Source: Bdellovibrionota bacterium | GTDB lineage: Bacteria > Bdellovibrionota > UBA1018 > CAUJDS01 | Assembly (NCBI GenBank): GCA_963169695.1 | Contig: CAUJDS010000011.1 | Location: 57,001 to 121,000 of the forward strand | DNA length: 64,000 bases | Reading direction: 5' to 3' | Part shown: in pieces, positions 42,244 through 51,545 of the stretch | Layout: every line of letters begins with the position of its first letter | Numbering within the stretch: position 1 is the stretch's first letter | Made by a program: the position numbers and the translations under genes | Notes under the pieces: model-generated | Told to the model about the DNA's origin: nothing | Database searches by the model: none | What the model saw: the letters and a program-made list of their open reading frames with translations, nothing else

Positions 42244-42300
42244 CCCAAAAAGGTGCCAAAAAACGTGTCTCACACGTTTATTGGCACCTATTGAGGAACC
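42244..42300. repeat. Intergenic repeat family, copy 1 (ccaaaaaggtgcc + hairpin + ggcacctattg).
   Basis: Shares the ccaaaaagg, AAACGTGT/ACACGTTT palindrome and ggcacctattg motifs with copies at 43.5 and 44.2 kb. Confidence 0.55.
42256..42283. terminator. Bidirectional rho-independent terminator hairpin between convergent genes.
   Basis: aaaAAACGTGT-ctc-ACACGTTTatt. An 8-bp perfect stem flanked by A and T runs, between the msbA-like stop (42243) and the lipoprotein gene stop (42288). Confidence 0.6.
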
Positions 42301-42884
42301 TCTAGAACTTCATAACTGTAATAACTGCCGTCAAGCGCGCGGTCTTCGAATCCAATCCAAACCTTCTCGCTACTTTCCGCAAGTATTTCAAATTGGTAAC
42401 TCCACCCTGCATCACCACTCAACTGGAATAGGTTGCGAGCTATTCTCTCCCACTTCAGGTCCAAATCCTTGGCATAAACTGGAACTTTCTTAGGAAGGCG
42501 CGGCCCCAAGGAAGAAGTGAAAGCTGCGAAGTCCAGATTTTGAGGTTCAAATCTTGGACTTCCGATAGCCTCATTCAATGCAAGCCCTTGCAGGGCTCCA
42601 AACTCAGCAATTGCACAAACCCGATAGTTCTTAAACTTGTGGAAGCTGGCGGTCGTCTCAGGCAGGGACTGAGCTCGATAAGCCTTTAGCCAGCTCTCGC
42701 AATTGTTGATACCCTTCTTGATCAATGTGCGTTTTATCTTCAGCACCTTTGCGGACTGTGCATCGGCAAGTAAGGCTTTGTCAAAGACTCGAATAGAATC
42801 TTGCTGAGATGTCTGCTGAGCACTCGAACAAGCGGTTGATAGTGCCAACGCAAATAGAAGGACTGCAAAACTACTTCTTCTCAT
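42288..42884 (-). CDS. Lipoprotein of unknown function, co-transcribed with the upstream lysozyme-like gene.
   Basis: Signal peptide and lipobox (ALALSTAC). 198 aa. Start overlaps the upstream gene's 3' end by 14 nt. Confidence 0.5.
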   Translation of the reverse strand: MRRSSFAVLLFALALSTACSSAQQTSQQDSIRVFDKALLADAQSAKVLKIKRTLIKKGINNCESWLKAYRAQSLPETTASFHKFKNYRVCAIAEFGALQGLALNEAIGSPRFEPQNLDFAAFTSSLGPRLPKKVPVYAKDLDLKWERIARNLFQLSGDAGWSYQFEILAESSEKVWIGFEDRALDGSYYSYEVLEVPQ

Positions 42885-43449
42885 TGAAACCCTTCATACC
42901 GGTTAGAAGATCGGCTTCTTTTCTCCTTCTGGTAGGATAGCGATCGCCAAAATTTCTTAGTTCGCTTTCAACCTTTGCCCATTCGTTCTTCTTTACGTGA
43001 TTCCAAAGATTCGGCGCTCGGCGTTCAAGGTTTGGTCCATATTGATAGGAAACAGAAAGAATTACTGTCTGTGCTTCCTGCTCCAGCTCATCAAAACTCT
43101 TGGAGTCTTTCGCATCCCTCGTTCTGTTATATACTTGCCTTATGCGTTCGAGATGCCGCACTTGAATCGCCCGGTCCAGATCTCCGGCCTCAACTGCACT
43201 CAGGACCAGGGGCTTCTTCTTTATAAAATCCACAGCCTTGGACCCTTTTAATCCTAAGTAAGGAGTCAATTTAGTGCGAGTAACATCTTTAATGGATAAA
43301 CTCTTGAGGTCTTCGGCACTCAACTGCCCCAAATCCACCCCAGTTGCTGCAGTTACACCACTTCCACTGGCACTCGAATCTGGTACGTAACCCTTGAGCA
43401 CTCGAGCACCTTCTAACGATTCAATAAACCGAAAATCTGGTCTAGCCAT
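42871..43449 (-). CDS. GH24 (phage T4-type) lysozyme-like protein.
   Basis: N-terminal FIESLEGARVLKGYVPD...SGVTAATGVDLG matches the catalytic Glu/Asp region of GH24 lysozymes (EGxRLxAYxD). C-terminal ...ILSVSYQYGPNL...W..V......W.......RR..E..LL matches the GH24 C-lobe pattern. No signal peptide. Confidence 0.55.
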   Translation of the reverse strand: MARPDFRFIESLEGARVLKGYVPDSSASGSGVTAATGVDLGQLSAEDLKSLSIKDVTRTKLTPYLGLKGSKAVDFIKKKPLVLSAVEAGDLDRAIQVRHLERIRQVYNRTRDAKDSKSFDELEQEAQTVILSVSYQYGPNLERRAPNLWNHVKKNEWAKVESELRNFGDRYPTRRRKEADLLTGMKGFNEKK

Positions 43450-43500: not shown

Positions 43501-43545
43501 CTATGACGCGCCTCGGGCCAAAAAGGTGACGGGCACCTTTTAAAA
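43501..43545. repeat. Intergenic repeat family, copy 2 (tgacgcgcctcgggccaaaaagg + hairpin).
   Basis: The 23-mer tgacgcgcctcgggccaaaaagg (43504-43526) is identical to 44172-44194. It is followed by the hairpin AAAAGGTG-acggg-CACCTTTT. It lies in the divergent region between the lysozyme-like gene and the 43557 lipoprotein gene. Confidence 0.55.
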
Positions 43546-43556
43546 AGGTCTTCAAT

Positions 43557-44162
43557 ATGCTAATGCCCGGCAATATGAAAATATTACTCAGAATGCTCCT
43601 TTTATCCCTTCTGCCGGCCGCCTGTGCCACTCCCCGTTTTGATGCACGAATAGAGCCCAATCAGGGTGACTCTGCTCAAATCAATGCGGCAATCGATGGT
43701 GTAACAGAAGAGCAGGAGAACGAAATCAAAGTCCATATGGGAAGCTTGCCAGCTGGAGTTCGAATCAATGGGGAAACGGTCGAACTCAGCAGTTCCTCAC
43801 CTCTAAAATATTTAGGACCAGTTCATACGACAGGTGGAAGTGGAGTTTTTCAATGGTCCTTCAACGATGACCGTACCGAGTGGTGCAGCGTTAGTAACGT
43901 TCTTACCATCGCTACAGGCTTCCTCTGGTCAATTTTGCCAATGCACTATCCTTGTTGGCCGTCTTACACATCAGACAGCCTCGAATCTGTCGAAATGAGG
44001 AAAACACACCTCCTTCGCGCGCTTAAGCGTGCGACCGTTGCAGCCGGAGGAAGTATTTTAGTCGTAAGATCGTTCGGACGAGTCGAAATCTTCAATGGCT
44101 TGACCGGCCATCACCTCGATTCAACCGAAATGGTCAATGCGCAAGGCTGGGCTTTCAAATAG
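43557..44162 (+). CDS. Lipoprotein of unknown function (201 aa).
   Basis: Signal peptide and lipobox (LLSLLPAAC). Confidence 0.45.
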   Translation: MLMPGNMKILLRMLLLSLLPAACATPRFDARIEPNQGDSAQINAAIDGVTEEQENEIKVHMGSLPAGVRINGETVELSSSSPLKYLGPVHTTGGSGVFQWSFNDDRTEWCSVSNVLTIATGFLWSILPMHYPCWPSYTSDSLESVEMRKTHLLRALKRATVAAGGSILVVRSFGRVEIFNGLTGHHLDSTEMVNAQGWAFK

Positions 44163-44271: not shown

Positions 44272-47200
44272 TTATTCCGCTTTGGAAGAAGTGCTGCGGT
44301 AGCGGGCGGCGGCTTCTTTGAGTTCGTCTTTTTTTGCAATGAGGCTACTGGAAATGGATTCGCAACTCGCATCTCCATCATCCATTTTTGATTCACCGGT
44401 TGTCTTCTTCTCAGCGGTCTTATCTCTATTGGCCCGCAAGTCTCGCAAGTCAGCATTCTTTTCTTCTTTTTCTTTTTCTATACGGTCTATTTCATCTTGG
44501 AGATTCTTGCCATTGGCTGAATCAAACGCCGCTTTTCTAAAATCATATTCTCTTTGATCTCTTCTTGCAGCATCCTCCGCTGCGGTCACTTTCGATCGAA
44601 GCTCGTTGTATTCAGCATTCAGTTGGTTTAATACACTTTCAGCTCGAGTCTTATCACTCTGTAATCTTGGCACTTTCTCTGGGTTTTTCTTATCGCCTTC
44701 GGTTGCCTCATAAAAAGCTTTGTCGGCATTTTTTAAAGCCTCATTTGCCACAAACCAGCCACTGCTATCACCAGATTTTTTAAAATTATTTAACCGAGCT
44801 GAAAGCACCTCCAACTCGGACTTCGAGGTCAACCACGTTTTTTCAATTGCTTGAAAATTGGTCTCTTTAGTACCGTAGCTCGCATCATTCTTCGACTTGA
44901 GCGCCGCCAGGTCGGACTTCAACTTTCGAATTTCCTCTTCAGCATCTTTCACTTTCTTCTCAGAACTTGCAATGGAAGCCAGGTCCCTAGCATTACTAGT
45001 CCCAGTCACTTTGCTCACGCCAGATCTCAGGATATCTGCGATATCCCGTGGCAGGTCATTGATCACAAGCTCCATATTCGACGTAAATTCTTTGAGTCGG
45101 TCGGTACCACCAAATTTATCTTCCATCCATGCGCAGGATTCCTTGAACTTGATACCAAGGGCTTCAAGTTCCTTGGCTTTGTCCTTCAAGCGATCCAAAG
45201 AACATTCGGACTTCAGCTCTTCGATTTCTTGAGAGACTTTGGCGATCTTCTGATTCTCTTTTTCTAATTCGGCTGCCTTCTCAGTGACCTTAGACAACTC
45301 ACCATTGAGGTCGCTCGAACCAAAATCAATCAACGGAGTACCTTGCATTTGTCCCGCAATAAGCCCCATAACATTCGTGCTTTTGCCCGGAATAGTAATC
45401 GGTTCGCCACTTGCTGTTTTTCCGACAACCTCTTGTGGTGCCTCAACCGGCGAAATGTACTTAAACCGAAAACCACCCGAAACTCTCAAGTCTTTTCCCG
45501 ATAGGTATTTGGATATCTTATCCAGCTGAGTCTTGATACTAGCAGCGTCTCCCGCAGGCCCACTGAGTGCCTGGCCAATAGTTTTGAGCTTGGTCGTGTA
45601 GCGTTCTTCCGCCAATCTCGCTGCCTCTTGCTGATTGCTTCGTACTTCGTTCACCGTGCGAATAAAATTGGTCGTCTGCTGCTGAAGGTTGCTAATAAAC
45701 CCTTCGATTCCTGCTCCGGGAATGGTCAAATTCTTTACGTAAGTGCCACCCTTGAAAGTCATGCTCGTAACCGAGACCTGGGGGTCGTCGCCGCGAACCA
45801 GAGAGCCCAATGTTTTTTTGAGGTCATTCAGGCAATTTTCTTCTGCATAGCCCAATGAGCTATCACACTGTTTGGTAGGAATGGCCACGTGGCCAGCACC
45901 TAGGACGCGCGCCACATTTTGAATATCAGCGGTATACTGCCCCAACATGGTCTGCGCAATTTGTTTGGAGGTTCGGCGAGTTTCTTCAATCTCTCGCTTC
46001 TTGTTGGCCAATGGGGTGCCTTCTTGTTTGGTACGACTGTTCACCGTCTTAAAGGCTGCGCTATAACAACCGCTCACTGCTGCATTGAGGAATCCTAGCA
46101 GATTGATTCCCGGCGTACTGATTCCAGAAAAGCGCTTGTTCAAGGTGGCAATCAATTCTTCCTTGGACATGATATTGAACGTCTGCCCGCCATAAGCTTC
46201 GGCAGCCTGAGGATTGGTAGCCGCACCTTTGGTCTTTGGCACATCCCCAAAAAGGCGTGCTAGCTGACTCTTCACCAAATTAGCGGTACTTGCGGCAGAT
46301 TTTTTATTAGCTGTACGGGTCTTGGCCTGGCCATCCTCGCCACGAAGGGATTCTTGCTCAATGCGTTCCAACAAAGCTTGCTCTCGACTACAAGAAACCG
46401 TTTGGCCAAGTTGCTCGCCTTTTCCAAGACACTTCATATTTGGGTCTGGTGTCTCTCGGAAGCAACGCTCAGTCTCTTCCATAATGGAGACGGACCATTG
46501 TTGATTGTATTCGGTGACTTTCTTTCTGAGATCCGACATAGCACGACTAACAACGGCTGAATCATTTTCGAGGCGGACGTTGAAATCTCCCTGGCCACGG
46601 GCCAACTTTTCTTTGAGTTGAAGGAGTCCGTCCTGTCCAACGGCTGGATTACCCGAAAGCTTAAGTTGAACTTCTTGTTGCTGCTGACCCAATTCTTCGA
46701 GCGCCTGACGATAGCCTTTTTGTACACGAAGGTTTTCGTCTACTTCCGATTGAAGGGGCGAGGCCAAAGAAGACGCGAATTGCTGAAAACTGCTGCCCTT
46801 TTCTACCAGACAAGCTACTTCCTGTTGCACGTAGTTGGCTTTGTTGATCTTACAAATATTGGCTTCTATTGCTGCCGCGTTATCTTGAATCAAACTACTC
46901 GTGGCCTTGAGACTAAAAACTCCCGTCTTATCTTTTACTGAAGAGGAGCTACAAGAAGGCGCAGATAGCACGGGGGTCACTTCCGGACAGTCGACTTCTA
47001 GCCCCATCGCGTTCTGCGCGCTACCGACGAAGGCTGAGTTAGAAATCTTCTTTGCTTTGGTATCTGTATAGCCAAGGTCCTCGTCTTCCGTAGCCTTTGG
47101 CGCTGCTTTGCTTTGCCTTGCTACTTGAATCACTTTACCTGTCAGACATTGATAGGGAAGCGACGGAGATGCTAGCCCGGTCAAATTGACATTGGACGAT

Positions 47201-47349
47201 GAGAAGTTGGTGGAAGGTCCCCAGGCAGCCGGCAAGTTTACCGAGGGCGCATTCACTGCAGCTGCATGGGCAAAAAGCACAACTCCTAAACCCGTAGGAA
47301 TAAGAAATCCAATGACCATTGCAAAATGAGGACGAAACAAACCCCGCAA
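44272..47349 (-). CDS. Large secreted coiled-coil protein (1025 aa), unknown function.
   Basis: N-terminal signal/TM (VIGFLIPTGLGVVLFAHAAAV). Long K/E/Q-rich predicted coiled-coil segments. Multiple Cys pairs. No recognisable catalytic domain. GC lower than its surroundings. Confidence 0.6.
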   Translation of the reverse strand: MRGLFRPHFAMVIGFLIPTGLGVVLFAHAAAVNAPSVNLPAAWGPSTNFSSSNVNLTGLASPSLPYQCLTGKVIQVARQSKAAPKATEDEDLGYTDTKAKKISNSAFVGSAQNAMGLEVDCPEVTPVLSAPSCSSSSVKDKTGVFSLKATSSLIQDNAAAIEANICKINKANYVQQEVACLVEKGSSFQQFASSLASPLQSEVDENLRVQKGYRQALEELGQQQQEVQLKLSGNPAVGQDGLLQLKEKLARGQGDFNVRLENDSAVVSRAMSDLRKKVTEYNQQWSVSIMEETERCFRETPDPNMKCLGKGEQLGQTVSCSREQALLERIEQESLRGEDGQAKTRTANKKSAASTANLVKSQLARLFGDVPKTKGAATNPQAAEAYGGQTFNIMSKEELIATLNKRFSGISTPGINLLGFLNAAVSGCYSAAFKTVNSRTKQEGTPLANKKREIEETRRTSKQIAQTMLGQYTADIQNVARVLGAGHVAIPTKQCDSSLGYAEENCLNDLKKTLGSLVRGDDPQVSVTSMTFKGGTYVKNLTIPGAGIEGFISNLQQQTTNFIRTVNEVRSNQQEAARLAEERYTTKLKTIGQALSGPAGDAASIKTQLDKISKYLSGKDLRVSGGFRFKYISPVEAPQEVVGKTASGEPITIPGKSTNVMGLIAGQMQGTPLIDFGSSDLNGELSKVTEKAAELEKENQKIAKVSQEIEELKSECSLDRLKDKAKELEALGIKFKESCAWMEDKFGGTDRLKEFTSNMELVINDLPRDIADILRSGVSKVTGTSNARDLASIASSEKKVKDAEEEIRKLKSDLAALKSKNDASYGTKETNFQAIEKTWLTSKSELEVLSARLNNFKKSGDSSGWFVANEALKNADKAFYEATEGDKKNPEKVPRLQSDKTRAESVLNQLNAEYNELRSKVTAAEDAARRDQREYDFRKAAFDSANGKNLQDEIDRIEKEKEEKNADLRDLRANRDKTAEKKTTGESKMDDGDASCESISSSLIAKKDELKEAAARYRSTSSKAE

Positions 47350-47598
47350 GACACATCCCCCGATACCTTATTATTTTACAGGGTTAATAGCGGATTTGAA
47401 AAGGGAAACTACCATCCGCTTGCCCAATCCGAGAAGCCGTTGAGTTACAGGCAAGTAGTCAAAGAACTGTCGGATTTTTAGACAGGGACTGTTTAGCGAT
47501 TGGACAGCGGAAGTGGTTTGCCGAATGCACGATGAAAATCATACGTCATTAAGAAGCTCCTTGAAGTCTGCAGAGGTTTTCACCGGAGCCACCCGGCC

Positions 47599-49262
47599 CC
47601 AGCAAGGCGGGTTTGATTCTTGGAAGTGGGTAATGGATGACAGGAAGGGGAGCAGCGAGGGAGGCAAAATTGAAAGAGTATTTTCAGTAAGGACCCGTGA
47701 ATACTCGTTTCATTGACTCCCTTTCTGCGCGCGAAATGGAAAGGAATTTTTCATCATCCTATTTGTAATTCAGAATTTTTCTCAAATTTTCTGTCATTTT
47801 TGCTTGACCGAGTTTTTTTATAAAAGGGTATTCTTCATTCAGTAAATCCAAGCAATGCGTAATGTCCTATTGCACGCGCATAATGCCTCAGTAGAGCATC
47901 GTTCGCTTAGCAATCCTCCGGGCTCATTTGAATGCTTGTATCGAGTCTCCTATAGAAGACTAAGGACTAAATATTCGACCAAAAATTCCGTGATAAGTAG
48001 TTTCGAAGAAAAAGAAACGGAGAAATGCAATGCTGCAAAATGAATCCACTCAAGCGTCAAAGATTAAAAATATTAGCACAGAACAATCGCCTTCTAGCCT
48101 CAAGGGATTGTCGGATTCTCAGTTGCAGCTTCGAATCCGAGAGCTTGCCAAAGCGGAACAGAGACTGACTTTACAAGTGCTGCTTCACCTCAAAGAAATC
48201 TCCGATCGCAAGCTCCATGCAAAGCTTGGATATGCTTCCTTATGGGAATATGCGGTGAAAGAACTAGGCTATTGCGAGGCTTCCGCTTCCTCTCGTATTG
48301 CGGCGATGCGACTGATGGTGAGTGTTCCAGAAGCTAGGACTCAGATCGAAAACGGGAAACTCACACTTTCTCAGGCAGCAAGGATTCAGCAGTTTATTCG
48401 CAAGGAGAATCAAGTTTCTTCTCAGCCCATTACGAAAAGCGAAACCAAAGCAATCATCCAGGCCTCCGTAGGTACTTCCATCCGAGAGACCCAGAGGATG
48501 CTCGAAGCCAAAGCCCAAGAACGAAGACCCAGCCTGATTGCAGAAAAGCCGAATCAACCTACTATCTCCTTCCAAGCCGATGAAGAAACCATGCAAATGC
48601 TAGAAAGGCTCCGAGAGCTGCGTGGAAACTTGGGAGCCTTGGAGTTATTTAAGCTAAGCCTGAGAACCACTTTAGACAAACTCGATCCACTCCGAAAGAA
48701 GCAGAAGGTAATAGGAAATAGCAAACCAGATCCATCCCTTTTTGCGCAGAAACCCGAGGATGATTGCCTCGTTTTTGATAGGAATTTATGCCCAACTTCT
48801 CCGAAGCCTTCACGCTTTATTCCGCAATGGATTCGGATCGAAGTGGCTAAGCGTAGCAAAGGCCAGTGCGAGTACCATAGTCCTTTAAACGGCAAGCGAT
48901 GCGAGAGTCGGTACCGCGTTCAATACGACCACATTGTGCCGATTGCTCGTGGGGGAGTAGGAACGCTAGCTAACATTCAGCACCTTTGCGGACTGCACAA
49001 TCGTACAAAGGGGGTGCAGATGGAGGCTGCGTACTTCGGGGTAGGACATGCAGTTGCGCCACCAGAAAGAAGAAGCTAATTTTGGTACTTATAGTGAGTA
49101 CGCGCGCGCGAAGAAGGGAAATGTTTTGATTGGCTAACAGGCAACTGTAAAATGCATGAATGTTTTGCAATTTTGAACCTACTTTTTGCACCCCCTCACC
49201 CTTGCTGTTCTCCATCCTGTCATCCATTGCTAACTTCCAAGAATCAAACCCGCCTTGCTGGA
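47599..49262. mobile_element. TIR-bounded cassette carrying an HNH endonuclease gene (putative small mobile element).
   Basis: Left repeat 47599-47655 (ccagcaaggcgggtttgattcttggaagtgggtaatggatgacaggaaggggagcagc). The right repeat 49201-49262 is its imperfect reverse complement. The first 29 bp are identical and overall identity is about 85% over about 60 bp. The pseudo-ORFs 47513..47716 (+) and 48970..49269 (-) encode the same QQGGFDSWK.MDDR peptide because of this symmetry. Confidence 0.6.
48030..49079 (+). CDS. HNH endonuclease domain protein (C-terminal HNH, N-terminal ~250 aa uncharacterised).
   Basis: C-terminal CEYHSPLNGKRCESRYRVQYDHIVPIARGGVGTLANIQHLCGLHNR is an HNH motif (CxxH..C...DHIxP...GG...N...LC..HN). 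Confidence 0.8.
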   Translation: MLQNESTQASKIKNISTEQSPSSLKGLSDSQLQLRIRELAKAEQRLTLQVLLHLKEISDRKLHAKLGYASLWEYAVKELGYCEASASSRIAAMRLMVSVPEARTQIENGKLTLSQAARIQQFIRKENQVSSQPITKSETKAIIQASVGTSIRETQRMLEAKAQERRPSLIAEKPNQPTISFQADEETMQMLERLRELRGNLGALELFKLSLRTTLDKLDPLRKKQKVIGNSKPDPSLFAQKPEDDCLVFDRNLCPTSPKPSRFIPQWIRIEVAKRSKGQCEYHSPLNGKRCESRYRVQYDHIVPIARGGVGTLANIQHLCGLHNRTKGVQMEAAYFGVGHAVAPPERRS

Positions 49263-49465
49263 GTTGCACTGGTGCTATTTAGGGTCGTTGAATGGTCAGT
49301 GGCTTAGAGGAAGATGCCTACCAGGAACAAGCGGAACGATGCTCTCCTGTAGATTCGCATAAAGCTACGATGAATCACGTCCTCCCTGCGAGGGCTAACG
49401 AGAATGGGCCTGGGCTCGAATTATTTCTTGCAAGCCCGAGTTGGGTTCATTAAACCCAAGAAATC

Positions 49466-49936
49466 ATGAAACGACGCTATTGGATCCTAAAGAACGAAGT
49501 GACGGACTACTCCATCGATGAAATGAAAAAAGACGGACAGACCGATTGGACGGGAGTCCGCAACTACCAGGCTCGTAATTTTATGATGAAGGACATGAAA
49601 GCTGGAGACTGGGCCTACTTCTACCACAGCAATGCTGAGCCTCCGGGATGCGCCGGCATTATAGAGATCTCTCGCGAAGCAAAGCCCGACCTCACGGCAC
49701 TAGACCCCAAGAGCAAATACTTCGAAAAGCGGGCCACCAAGGAAAACCCTGTATGGCATTGTGTTCAAGTAAAGTTCAAACGAAAGCTGAAGCGTCTCGT
49801 ACCCCTCAGCGAACTTCGAGAAAACCCAAAGCTCAAAGACCTCTTACTTCTCCAACGAGGAAGTCGACTTTCGATCACGCCCGTCAGCCAAGAAGCATTT
49901 GAAGAAATAGAAAGAATGTCCAAAGAGATCCGATAG
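49466..49936 (+). CDS. EVE domain protein (PUA-like, DUF55).
   Basis: 156 aa. MKRRYWILKNEVTDYSIDE...WTGVRNYQARNFMMKDMKAGDWAYFYHS...GCAGIIEISREAKPD... matches the EVE/thymocyte-nuclear-protein-1-like fold signature. Confidence 0.8.
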   Translation: MKRRYWILKNEVTDYSIDEMKKDGQTDWTGVRNYQARNFMMKDMKAGDWAYFYHSNAEPPGCAGIIEISREAKPDLTALDPKSKYFEKRATKENPVWHCVQVKFKRKLKRLVPLSELRENPKLKDLLLLQRGSRLSITPVSQEAFEEIERMSKEIR

Positions 49937-49940
49937 TGCT

Positions 49941-51545
49941 TTATCGCCTTCCAAATACAACATCCAAAGCACACCGAATCAAGGAACGCCTTTCAACGCT
50001 CTTTGAAGACTCCTTGCCTTTATCCGGATCCAAGAGTGGCTCGAGAAAGGACCTCAGGGCCAACTGACCTTTTGCCTCATTGGTATAGAAATCATGCAAC
50101 ACCGCCTGACCGGGTTTGACCCAGGCCAGAGTGGATTGATCAGTCCCAAGTACCAGCGTCTTTTGAAAGTCCGCGTGGAGGTTAGCCATATGCAAAAATC
50201 CACTATCTTGGGTAATTATGGCGCTGGCTTCTTTCATTGCTGAATACCATATGGGTTTGAGGTCCGGCTCGGCTGGAAGGAATGCAAGCTTGCCTGTTTG
50301 CTCTTGGTATTTTTTCAAAAATGCTTCCGCCTTTGCATAAGCTGATTGAATAGCTTTTTGTTCTTCAGCGTAGTGCTGCGAACTTGGATTCTCCAGTGGT
50401 GTAACTATAATGCGGGTACGGGGATTGACCGAATGGACCGTGCGAAGGATCGCTTCCAGTGCTGCATCTACCTTAGGTCCAATAACCGCCGTCTTAAAGG
50501 TTCCAGCTGTGTTGAGATTCAAAACAAGTAGTGGACCGTCCTGTGACCGAAAGGACGAGCTCAAAAAAGCCCTCCATGCGTTCTCTTCCGCGGGCATTTT
50601 CAACAAAGTGGCCGGAATATGAAAGTCCACGGGAGTCCCAAACAGCACGCCACTTTGCATGCCACTCACTTCATAATTAGACCTGCTCCTGCCAATAAAC
50701 AGATCCTTCCACTTGTCCCAAATCTGATGCCCTGATTCCTGATGACTCGTTTCAATCAGAGAACGCTGAGCTGGGGTGAGGTTCTTGTTCCAAGAGTAAA
50801 CCTCCGCAAGTCCCCCTTCCGTCAGAATCGCCGTCCCTTCTATCGCCTTCAGACGATCTCGGATCGCTTTCTTTACGTGATGGGCTACCCAGCTACTTGC
50901 TTGAGCAATTCTCTCGTTAGATCGCTTGTCAAAAGGTAGTTTCTCTCGCAATCGCCTACGAATTACCGTATTAACAATTTCTCCATCCAAATAACTCGCG
51001 TCCACATAGTAAAGCGTCGTGGGATGTTGAAGTGGCGCCAGCATCTTGCCAAGAAAAGGCTCTAGCTCCCACTTCCAACTCACTGGTGATTTGAAATCGG
51101 TATCCGCCGCATACCGTTCAATTTGACTAAAGACATCCTGACCAATGACTTCCGGAAGCCTCATCGGCTCCAATATCAATCCGCGCTGCGCTCTCAGAAT
51201 ATCTACAAACGGGCTGGTTACGTGCAAAGGAGTTGTTGGAAAAGCGGACTGAATCCCATTCAGCGCCGAAAATCCAAATAGCACCGTATCGCCAAGGTAG
51301 GAGCGATAGCTCAAGAGATGTACCTTCTCCCAAGGCAACCTGATCAATCCGGTAGCCTCTACCATGCTTCGAGGCAAGGGTCCCGTTATCCCAGCAACAC
51401 GCAGGAAATCCGCCCAAAATCCGGGTGGAACCTTCCGGGGTTCCGCTGCAAACACGGAGACCTGCAAGGCCAAGAAAAGGCACAAAAACAAATGTCGCTT
51501 GCAGTGCCGGCCTATGAACTTCTTGAAGAACATCCCTTTCCTCAC
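49941..51545 (-). CDS. Secreted hypothetical protein with a GT9 (heptosyltransferase)-like C-terminal region.
   Basis: Signal peptide (LFLCLFLALQVSVFAA). C-terminal ...IITQDSGFLHMANLHADFQKTLVLGTD resembles the GT9 xTNDSGPMHLAAA...LFG motif. The N-terminal half has no known domain. Confidence 0.4.
   Translation of the reverse strand: MRKGMFFKKFIGRHCKRHLFLCLFLALQVSVFAAEPRKVPPGFWADFLRVAGITGPLPRSMVEATGLIRLPWEKVHLLSYRSYLGDTVLFGFSALNGIQSAFPTTPLHVTSPFVDILRAQRGLILEPMRLPEVIGQDVFSQIERYAADTDFKSPVSWKWELEPFLGKMLAPLQHPTTLYYVDASYLDGEIVNTVIRRRLREKLPFDKRSNERIAQASSWVAHHVKKAIRDRLKAIEGTAILTEGGLAEVYSWNKNLTPAQRSLIETSHQESGHQIWDKWKDLFIGRSRSNYEVSGMQSGVLFGTPVDFHIPATLLKMPAEENAWRAFLSSSFRSQDGPLLVLNLNTAGTFKTAVIGPKVDAALEAILRTVHSVNPRTRIIVTPLENPSSQHYAEEQKAIQSAYAKAEAFLKKYQEQTGKLAFLPAEPDLKPIWYSAMKEASAIITQDSGFLHMANLHADFQKTLVLGTDQSTLAWVKPGQAVLHDFYTNEAKGQLALRSFLEPLLDPDKGKESSKSVERRSLIRCALDVVFGRR

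Follow-up and report, generated by a model that had tools for sequence, protein, structure and literature searches.

A repeat-bounded HNH endonuclease cassette beside a stand-alone EVE gene in a Bdellovibrionota bacterium: two probably unrelated units

Proteins that combine an EVE domain with an HNH nuclease domain, such as those of the VcaM4I/TspA15I group, are genuine modification-dependent enzymes (PMC7897488, PMC6765204). EVE domains also occur alone. Cellular EVE proteins have been described in a gene context of the ZapA/ZapB/5-FTHF cyclo-ligase type, and EVE domains associated with defence are more diverse in sequence (Bell et al., 2020; PMC7641849). HNH domains are found in a different setting in the DUF222/HNH proteins, known in Mycobacterium tuberculosis as the REP13E12 family, which has been characterized as a repetitive element (PMC10589994).

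The stretch of DNA analyzed here (the window, 64,000 nucleotides from a Bdellovibrionota bacterium) resembles the EVE-HNH enzymes in that both domain types are encoded in it. In contrast to VcaM4I, in which the EVE domain is N-terminal, they belong to two proteins separated by a repeat boundary, with HNH first, and the HNH protein has, instead of a reader, a predicted helical domain of the ParB type. An earlier note on this DNA had described an HNH gene (349 aa) and an EVE gene (156 aa) on the same strand about 390 bp apart, with the right terminal inverted repeat (TIR) between them. This arrangement was confirmed (Table 1): both open reading frames are on the + strand, with a gap of 386 nt, and the right arm falls between them. 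The note had proposed either a two-gene version of an EVE-HNH defence module or an HNH cassette that landed beside a housekeeping EVE gene. We favor the latter, at a probability of roughly 85%: a repeated HNH cassette and a native EVE gene of the housekeeping type would be two unrelated units lying side by side, and their adjacency would be accidental.

Table 1. Features of the HNH cassette and of the neighboring EVE gene, in window positions.
Feature	Position	Strand	Remarks
Whole repeated cassette	47596-49261	+	about 1.67 kb; boundaries from assembly breaks; HNH relatives on other contigs
Left terminal inverted repeat	47596-47661	.	arm 47599-47661 by repeat search; weaker similarity inward to about 47690
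AT-rich non-coding leader within the cassette, upstream of the HNH gene	47662-48029	+	GC 0.378 versus 0.497 for the window
HNH endonuclease gene	48030-49079	+	349-aa open reading frame
HNH protein domains			residues about 23-165, predicted DUF222-like/ParB-KorB-like helical DNA-binding N-terminus; second helical region; about 260-335, HNH
Right terminal inverted repeat	49199-49261	.	marks the cassette limit with its outer end
Presumed native EVE upstream region	49262-49465	+	204 nt; unique; within Logan contigs L001-L003
Stand-alone EVE (PUA-like) gene	49466-49936	+	156 aa; single copy; THYN1/PSPTO5229-like clade

The Pfam HNH match of the 349-aa protein lies just under the gathering score (19.7 versus 21.4 bits, residues 289-328). 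The domain is nevertheless secure, as the PHROG HNH families match the protein (E = 4e-8), PF01844 is matched by 77 of the 82 members of its family, and the motif residues are kept, with D300-H301, N315, H323-N324 and the cysteines 280, 291 and 320 invariant or nearly so in the alignment. The N-terminal domain, which the note had called unknown, has no Pfam match of its own; its predicted structure is all-helical, with a fold that matches ParB/KorB-like proteins. Among the closest known domains to the structure model are the DNA-binding domains of ParB, KorB, SopB and VirB, which suggests that the HNH protein carries a DNA-binding domain of its own, of the ParB/KorB type. The note had also asked whether this N-terminus holds a second reader or a DNA-binding fold. 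The model points to the latter, and a second modified-base (PUA-type) reader was dropped as an idea in view of the all-helical model and its ParB/KorB-like matches.

By sequence comparison the HNH protein is a member of a very large DUF222-like-HNH family, with 4520 representatives at 50% identity (E<=1e-30); metagenomes were scanned for this family with an 11-sequence alignment as the query. DUF222 (PF02720) is matched by 33 of the 82 family members at E<=0.1 (best 7.5e-7), the individually inspected ones falling below the gathering score, and the protein in the window reaches no Pfam score for DUF222. It shares with the REP13E12 proteins of M. tuberculosis and its relatives a helical N-terminus, a C-terminal HNH domain and the occurrence of multiple copies in genomes. 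It differs from them in being shorter (349 aa), in lacking a DUF222 score and in that its family derives from metagenomic lineages outside the actinobacteria. A predicted DNA-binding domain of the ParB/KorB type can thereby be assigned to a very large family whose function is unexplained.

In the 156-aa EVE protein, EVE is the only domain, and PF01878 is matched over its full length (E = 7e-51, residues 4-151 of the protein, positions 1-145 of the 145 in the profile). About 8000 homologs at 45-63% identity were found in many bacterial and archaeal phyla. The nearest solved structures are 2g2x (3e-35), 2eve (7e-35), 2ar1 (7e-34) and THYN1 (3eop, 1e-29), and the protein shares with THYN1, PSPTO5229 (2eve) and PP5205 (2g2x) a single-domain architecture of about 150 aa. 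A profile built from its clade matches PSPTO5229, PP5205 and THYN1 at E-values of 1e-45 to 1e-54, and leaves the EVE-HNH enzyme VcaM4I undetected at a cutoff as loose as E<=10. These comparisons place the protein in a conserved, slowly evolving THYN1/PSPTO5229-like clade and not in the restriction-enzyme clade. Two residues, W28 and Y85, show no variation in the alignment; judging from the alignment offsets, they are probably the counterparts of the 2eve pocket residues W26 and Y82. The protein is presumed to be a reader of modified RNA or DNA bases with a cellular (housekeeping) role.

Recurrent neighbors of the EVE orthologs are ZapA, ZapB, 5-FTHF cyclo-ligase, PepP, YgfB and RpiA, the setting reported for cellular EVE proteins (PMC7641849). 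In proteobacteria the gene sits in a ZapB-ZapA-ssrS-YgfA or TsaD-GpsA-YciI context. The EVE gene in the window does not: unlike the proteobacterial loci it is monocistronic, between the cassette and a 534-aa orphan gene on which it converges, with 4 nt between the two.

The HNH gene alone, and not the EVE gene, is bracketed by the inverted repeat. According to the repeat search, the arms are 63 nt long, inverted and 89% complementary, and a blastn comparison of the two flanks of the HNH gene with each other gave E = 1e-19. Only 29 perfect bases are common to both arms, forming the core CCAGCAAGGCGGGTTTGATTCTTGGAAGT; a 28-nt repeat core occurs twice in the 64-kb window, versus 0 copies expected, and the core has no exact match in a viral contig collection. 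The cassette lies in a divergent intergenic region between a 1025-aa gene (-) and the EVE gene (+), and its removal in silico leaves an intergenic region of 450 nt. The HNH protein is the sole product of a cassette open reading frame with a family match. The leader shows no Rfam family and no convincing promoter consensus on the + strand, and the repeat search found no repeats within the upstream region of the EVE gene.

Terminal inverted repeats are what the cassette has in common with a classical insertion sequence or transposon; it differs in having neither a recognized transposase nor a target-site duplication. In Pfam, NCBIfam and PHROGs no transposase was found in it, whether a DDE or HUH enzyme or a serine or tyrosine recombinase, and the flanks (...GGAGCCACCCGG / cassette / AGTTGCACTGG...) carry no direct repeat. 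Insertion and movement of the cassette, and the mechanism of either, are thus matters of inference. Neither Rfam families nor tRNAs were detected anywhere in the window, which rules out an explanation through a HEARO/omega-RNA-type element or a tRNA attachment site.

The ends of the repeated unit could be placed by breaks in independent assemblies. Logan contigs covering the EVE flank (L001-L003, from three runs) all start at 49232, 30 nt inside the 49261/49262 boundary, and in one independent Logan contig of the left flank the last base is 47625, again 30 nt inward, relative to 47596. This left-flank contig was found through the 1025-aa gene, and those found through a 192-aa gene end short of the repeat. 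The Logan assemblies presumably use k = 31. In a de Bruijn graph of that k, breaks 30 nt inside the repeat ends are expected where several different flanks converge on one repeat. As the arms share only 29 perfect bases, other copies of the repeat are needed to produce these breaks; the two arms alone are ruled out as their source, also because some bases at the break positions are not identical in the two arms. A polymorphism between occupied and empty sites is likewise ruled out, since it would place the breaks at the edge of the element, and they are found 30 nt further in. Breakpoints in independent short-read assemblies can in this way map where a repeated element starts and stops with single-base precision, even without the sequence of the other copies.

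Relatives of the HNH protein are encoded on four other NCBI contigs, at 89, 88, 87 and 83% identity. The best non-self relative of the EVE protein has 63% identity, and no relative of the neighboring 534-aa gene was found. The extra HNH copies are therefore probably not orthologs from sister genomes, and they appear to come without accompanying EVE copies. We infer that the four close relatives are paralogs in the same genome, which would carry about five HNH copies and one EVE gene. Several copies of the HNH family are also present within other genomes and samples. With a multi-copy cassette ending 204 bases before a single-copy EVE gene, the pairing looks accidental.

The earlier note had suggested a survey of EVE homologs for an HNH neighbor. 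In 80 genomic loci of EVE orthologs, not one HNH gene was found within 10 kb, using a family profile and an HNH-only profile at E<=1, and there was none at the nearest EVE relatives, two loci added from contig look-ups (P0002 and P0006). These nearest relatives (61 and 54% identity) lie in contexts unlike that of the window, and the 80 EVE loci contain no homologs of the genes that neighbor EVE there. Conversely, none of 52 HNH-family loci (329 kb in all) contains an EVE gene at E<=10; for 25 of 53 loci, a tally that includes the one in the window, the sequence extends 1.5 kb or more past the end of the HNH gene. The EVE-HNH pairing of the window was thus not conserved in any sampled locus.

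These data bear directly on the two-gene module envisaged in the note. As a split type IV system it would be a two-gene counterpart of enzymes such as VcaM4I, in which the EVE protein would sense 5mC/5hmC-type bases in invading DNA and recruit or activate the separate HNH nuclease. The orientation and spacing of the two genes, the existence of true EVE-HNH enzymes and the fact that stand-alone EVE proteins accompany some restriction systems, mostly archaeal (PMC7641849), would all agree with such a system. Against it stand the repeat boundary at 49261, which shows that the two genes do not form one duplicated unit, the copy numbers (about five versus one), the lack of co-occurrence from either side, the THYN1-like clade of the EVE protein without a detectable match to VcaM4I, and the predicted DNA-binding domain of the HNH protein itself. 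NTP-independent modification-dependent enzymes are, moreover, typically single polypeptides. In PADLOC neither HNH nor EVE had a significant match, nor did either of two flanking genes that were included; NCBIfam gave no useful matches, and the wider neighbors are genes for 2-oxoacid dehydrogenase E1 subunits, PEMT, TenA, pirin and an ABC transporter and DapF/PurF-like genes, so that the locus is one of housekeeping neighbors and not a defence island. A two-gene defence module is very improbable on this evidence, and hardly any weight can be given to a variant in which the single EVE protein senses modified bases in trans on behalf of all dispersed HNH copies. A lineage-specific co-option of the pair would be compatible with the lack of association in distant relatives. 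By comparison, the note's other reading, that an HNH cassette landed beside a housekeeping EVE gene, is supported by the repeat boundary, the copy numbers, the co-occurrence data and the EVE clade. Documenting that chance adjacency is the most likely case spares catalogs of defence systems a spurious 'split type IV system' entry.

The cassette could also affect the EVE gene by supplying or disrupting its transcription, either by HNH transcripts that run on into EVE or by an outward promoter near the right repeat. Only 204 nt separate its end from the EVE start codon, and a sigma-70-like match (49126-49153, +) lies between the HNH stop codon and the right repeat. No strong terminator was found between the genes, which are on the same strand, and HNH and EVE may be co-transcribed by read-through. 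However, the promoter scan gave 4 sites versus 2.9 expected by chance, so the sigma-70-like match carries no weight, and the remaining 204 nt suffices for a native promoter. Such a regulatory side effect is improbable, if less so than the split system.

In the preferred reading, that of two unrelated neighbors, the cassette consists of 63-nt imperfect inverted repeats bounding a single gene for a fusion of a predicted DNA-binding domain to HNH. It is a repeated selfish element that probably is, or once was, mobile, and the genome would contain about five diverged copies of it. One of these would have landed between the 1025-aa gene and the EVE gene, where the promoters diverge. The EVE gene lies outside, beyond the right repeat, and the two proteins would not be expected to cooperate. 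In a different view, the two arms are copies of an independent short repeat of the dispersed MITE or REP type, and it is by chance that they flank an ordinary HNH gene of an expanded family. Indeed, neither the 63-nt repeat nor any other flanking inverted repeat was found at the 24 other HNH-family loci with enough flank, and in two paralogs of another genome the DNA similarity begins only about 40 nt ahead of the start codon. The missing target-site duplication fits this view as well, and the assembly breaks bear on the recurrence of the repeat ends elsewhere and not on that of the cassette interior. On the other side, the window holds only two copies in 64 kb, both bracketing the one multi-copy gene; the arms are oriented toward each other with a spacing that fits the ends of an element, and their 89% identity equals that among the paralogs (83-89%). 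We regard independent repeats as unlikely.

We are equally doubtful of a more ambitious proposal, in which the cassette would be an autonomous mobile element of an undescribed kind whose HNH protein recognizes and cuts the 63-nt TIRs in order to spread. Were this the case, the DUF222-like-HNH lineage would represent a nuclease-driven, TIR-bounded transposon or homing element, with the EVE gene still a bystander, and it would hint at a function for the enigmatic REP13E12/DUF222-HNH repeats. An HNH gene between long inverted repeats in this lineage is in any event a concrete candidate for studying how HNH repeats spread. The locus is ordinary apart from one mildly unusual feature, namely that a DUF222-like-HNH cassette carries a lineage-specific TIR.

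The HNH nuclease gene and the EVE gene lie on the same strand with 386 nt between them, in agreement with the arrangement described in the earlier note. An inverted repeat encloses the HNH gene only, and its right arm indeed falls between the two genes. The arms are 89% complementary, the HNH flanks align with each other at E=1e-19 (blastn), and the number of chance matches expected in the window for the 28-nt core of the repeat is 0.

Features of the HNH-EVE region (window coordinates) and of related loci (coordinates within the retrieved locus)
Feature	Coordinates	Strand	Remarks
HNH ORF	48030-49079	+	349 aa
EVE ORF	49466-49936	+	156 aa
Left repeat arm	47599-47661		63 nt
Right repeat arm	49199-49261		63 nt
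Signal-peptide-like ORF	44272-47349	-	1025 aa
Convergent orphan ORF	49941-51545	-	534 aa
Pesticin-domain ORF	42871-43449	-	192 aa
Secreted-looking ORF	42288-42884		198 aa
Second assembly gap	43539-43851		within ORF 43557-44162
HNH copy, locus L004	7971-9062		contig k141_211312
HNH copy, locus L008	2792-3865		contig k141_211312
HNH copy, contig L128	9914-10810
HNH copy, contig L128	19449-20388
Bdellovibrio-like EVE locus L010	3445-4833		EVE with fumarase C
Bdellovibrio-like EVE locus L093	8505-9902		EVE with fumarase C

Assembly breakpoints place the ends of the cassette. The EVE-carrying contigs from three independent Logan assemblies (ERR10643333, ERR10643334, ERR10643335) all begin at 49232 and show no other difference from the window, and a fourth Logan contig, with the 1025-aa gene on the opposite side, stops at 47625. 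Both breaks lie 30 nt inward of the outer repeat ends (49261/49262 and 47595/47596). Logan uses de Bruijn graphs at k=31; where several flanks meet at a shared repeat end in such a graph, a unique contig retains an overlap of k-1 = 30 nt into the repeat. As the two arms of the window copy have only 29 perfect bases in common, and the break positions include bases that differ between them, the arms alone cannot account for the breaks; the sample must contain further copies whose flanks differ. The repeated unit is thus 47596-49261 (about 1.67 kb). An occupied/empty-site polymorphism would break at the element edge rather than 30 nt inside, and was rejected as the cause. Given the 30-nt inward overlap, the cassette ends agree to the base with the breakpoints in four independent short-read contigs. 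The unit that contains the HNH gene is bounded by repeats, and its ends are found elsewhere next to different flanks; the EVE gene, which starts 204 nt beyond the cassette, is outside it. Without the cassette, the divergent genes for the 1025-aa protein (-) and EVE (+) would be separated by 450 nt of intergenic DNA; the cassette flanks show no target-site duplication.

The copy numbers of the two genes also appear to differ. Only 15 homologues of the HNH protein are in the word index; four of them, at 89, 88, 87, and 83% identity, are located on four other NCBI contigs. For the EVE protein about 8000 homologues are found, the best non-self match having 63% identity, and the 534-aa protein encoded next to it has, among 5.8 billion proteins searched, no homologue besides itself (annotated there as 407 aa). 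Since neither EVE nor the 534-aa gene has relatives at 80-90%, the four HNH relatives would not derive from sister genomes, and the simplest reading is that one genome carries about five HNH paralogues versus a single EVE gene.

The earlier note had considered a split modification-dependent restriction pair, which the gene neighborhoods do not bear out. A genome scan with the EVE-clade alignment yielded 80 loci, each flanked on either side by as much as 10 kb of sequence; they represent Bdellovibrionota, Myxococcota, Gamma- and Betaproteobacteria, Bacteroidota, Patescibacteria, Planctomycetota, archaea, and others. Within these flanks, none of the 80 has a match to the HNH-family or HNH-only profile at E<=1, and none has neighbor genes in common with the window; the HNH neighbor is absent at the closest EVE relatives with a long contig (61 and 54% identity). 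In the opposite direction, no EVE ORF turned up, even at a cut-off of E<=10, in the 329 kb spanned by 50 metagenomic HNH-family loci and a further two copies on a 302-kb contig; of the 53 loci tallied, the window's own included, 25 extend 1.5 kb or more past the HNH gene on its downstream side. Among the loci surveyed in both directions, the pairing is found solely in the window.

The EVE protein matches PF01878 over the full domain (residues 4-151, E=7e-51), and its closest solved structures are PP5205 (2g2x), PSPTO5229 (2eve), a Leishmania protein (2ar1), and human THYN1 (E 1e-35 to 1e-29). The EVE-clade profile finds these founding stand-alone EVE proteins at 1e-45 to 1e-54, but has no match even at E<=10 to the EVE-HNH enzyme VcaM4I, of which structures are in the PDB (6YEX and related entries). 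Recurrent neighbors at 82 orthologue loci are ZapA (18 loci), 5-formyltetrahydrofolate cyclo-ligase (12), TauE (12), aminopeptidase P (10), ZapB (9), RpiA (8), UPF0149/YgfB (8), and fumarase C (6). Such a cellular context has been described for beta- and gammaproteobacterial EVE proteins, which were contrasted with the more sequence-diverse EVE domains of defense systems (Bell, Wolf and Koonin, 2020; PMC7641849). As clade matches and orthologue neighbors both fit this context, the window gene is, judged by its sequence, a housekeeping-type, single-copy gene for a THYN1-like stand-alone EVE protein of the cellular clade. It is monocistronic, between the cassette and the convergent orphan gene. 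In the Bdellovibrio-like loci L010 and L093 the gene adjoining EVE is that for fumarase C, a context different from the proteobacterial ZapA/ZapB/YgfA one, and in L093 a glutaredoxin gene directly follows EVE.

For the HNH protein, the Pfam HNH match (residues 289-328, 19.7 bits) is just below the gathering score of 21.4. The assignment is nevertheless secure: the protein matches phage HNH families (E=4e-8), PF01844 is found in 77 of the 82 family members, and conservation within the family is complete or nearly so at D300-H301, N315, H323-N324, and three cysteines. This family is very large (4520 representatives at 50% identity and E<=1e-30 in an exhaustive profile search, full-length architecture kept). 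DUF222 (PF02720) matches the N-terminal part of 33 of the 82 members (best E=7.5e-7), though not the window protein itself; DUF222/HNH proteins form the REP13E12 repeat family of M. tuberculosis, counted among repetitive elements (PMC10589994). The N-terminal domain is predicted to be helical, ParB/KorB-like, and DNA-binding-like, so the nuclease has a DNA-binding module of its own, probably a sequence-specific one; the second modified-base reader looked for in this domain did not emerge, as the protein has no PUA-like or other beta-barrel reader.

Elsewhere the family is also multi-copy: contig k141_211312 and the retrieved contig L128 carry two copies each, and in Ga0302277 members of the family are on six contigs. 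Copies in other genomes are diverged, their DNA being about 75% identical across the first 700 nt of the gene, and lie in unrelated housekeeping contexts, and many metagenomic contigs stop at or near the gene. Several copies per genome and contigs ending at the gene fit a repeated selfish gene family, and by sequence the window gene belongs to this DUF222-like-HNH type. A flanking inverted repeat was found in 0 of 24 testable family loci, and DNA similarity between two paralogues in another genome begins only about 40 nt before the start codon; the 63-nt repeat is thus a feature of the window lineage rather than of the family, possibly a lineage-specific packaging of the gene between inverted repeats.

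Most likely, the HNH-EVE adjacency is real but accidental. This favors the alternative in the earlier note, an HNH cassette that landed beside a housekeeping EVE gene, given that EVE lies outside the repeat unit, copy numbers differ, and co-occurrence is absent. The cassette, mobile now or formerly, would have inserted in the divergent promoter region upstream of EVE. Its spread would not be recent, since the HNH gene does not stand out from the window in coding GC content or GC3 and the divergence among the paralogues is 10-17%. Movement may have occurred by nuclease-driven homing or transposition, with its own HNH and ParB-like domain acting on the repeats, or the cassette may have been mobilized in trans. 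The most likely role of EVE, in line with the proposal for its clade, would be to recognize a modified base in the RNA or DNA of the cell, with no involvement of the HNH protein.

It is unlikely that the repeats are a short dispersed element in their own right, on either side of an ordinary HNH paralogue, and the verdict on EVE would then be unchanged. A regulatory side effect, in which the insertion alters EVE transcription, would fit the lack of a good terminator between the two genes, but the one candidate promoter close to the right repeat does not rise above chance expectation, and we regard this as improbable. A split EVE and HNH restriction system is very hard to sustain: a repeat boundary separates the genes, which have unequal copy numbers and do not co-occur in either direction; the EVE protein falls in the cellular clade, and the HNH protein has its own helical DNA-binding-like domain; and there is neither a PADLOC match nor a defense-island context. 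Both genes are of already known kinds, and the only mildly unusual point is that a DUF222-like-HNH gene lies between long inverted repeats.

Among the other neighbors, the orphan ORF converges on EVE with a 4-nt gap and has no match in Pfam, NCBIfam, or PADLOC. The 1025-aa protein has a signal-peptide-like N-terminus and long charged regions, coiled-coil in appearance, and matches nothing in any family library searched. At the second assembly gap, where the retrieved contig L090 begins (43538) and L147 stops (43852), about 310 nt are not covered by the Logan contigs retrieved, possibly owing to another repeat, microdiversity, or low coverage. The 192-aa protein carries a Pesticin domain (PF16754, lysozyme-like toxin) in the precomputed Pfam annotation of Logan contigs; its ORF overlaps the downstream secreted-looking ORF by 14 nt, and the two could be a toxin/immunity-like pair.
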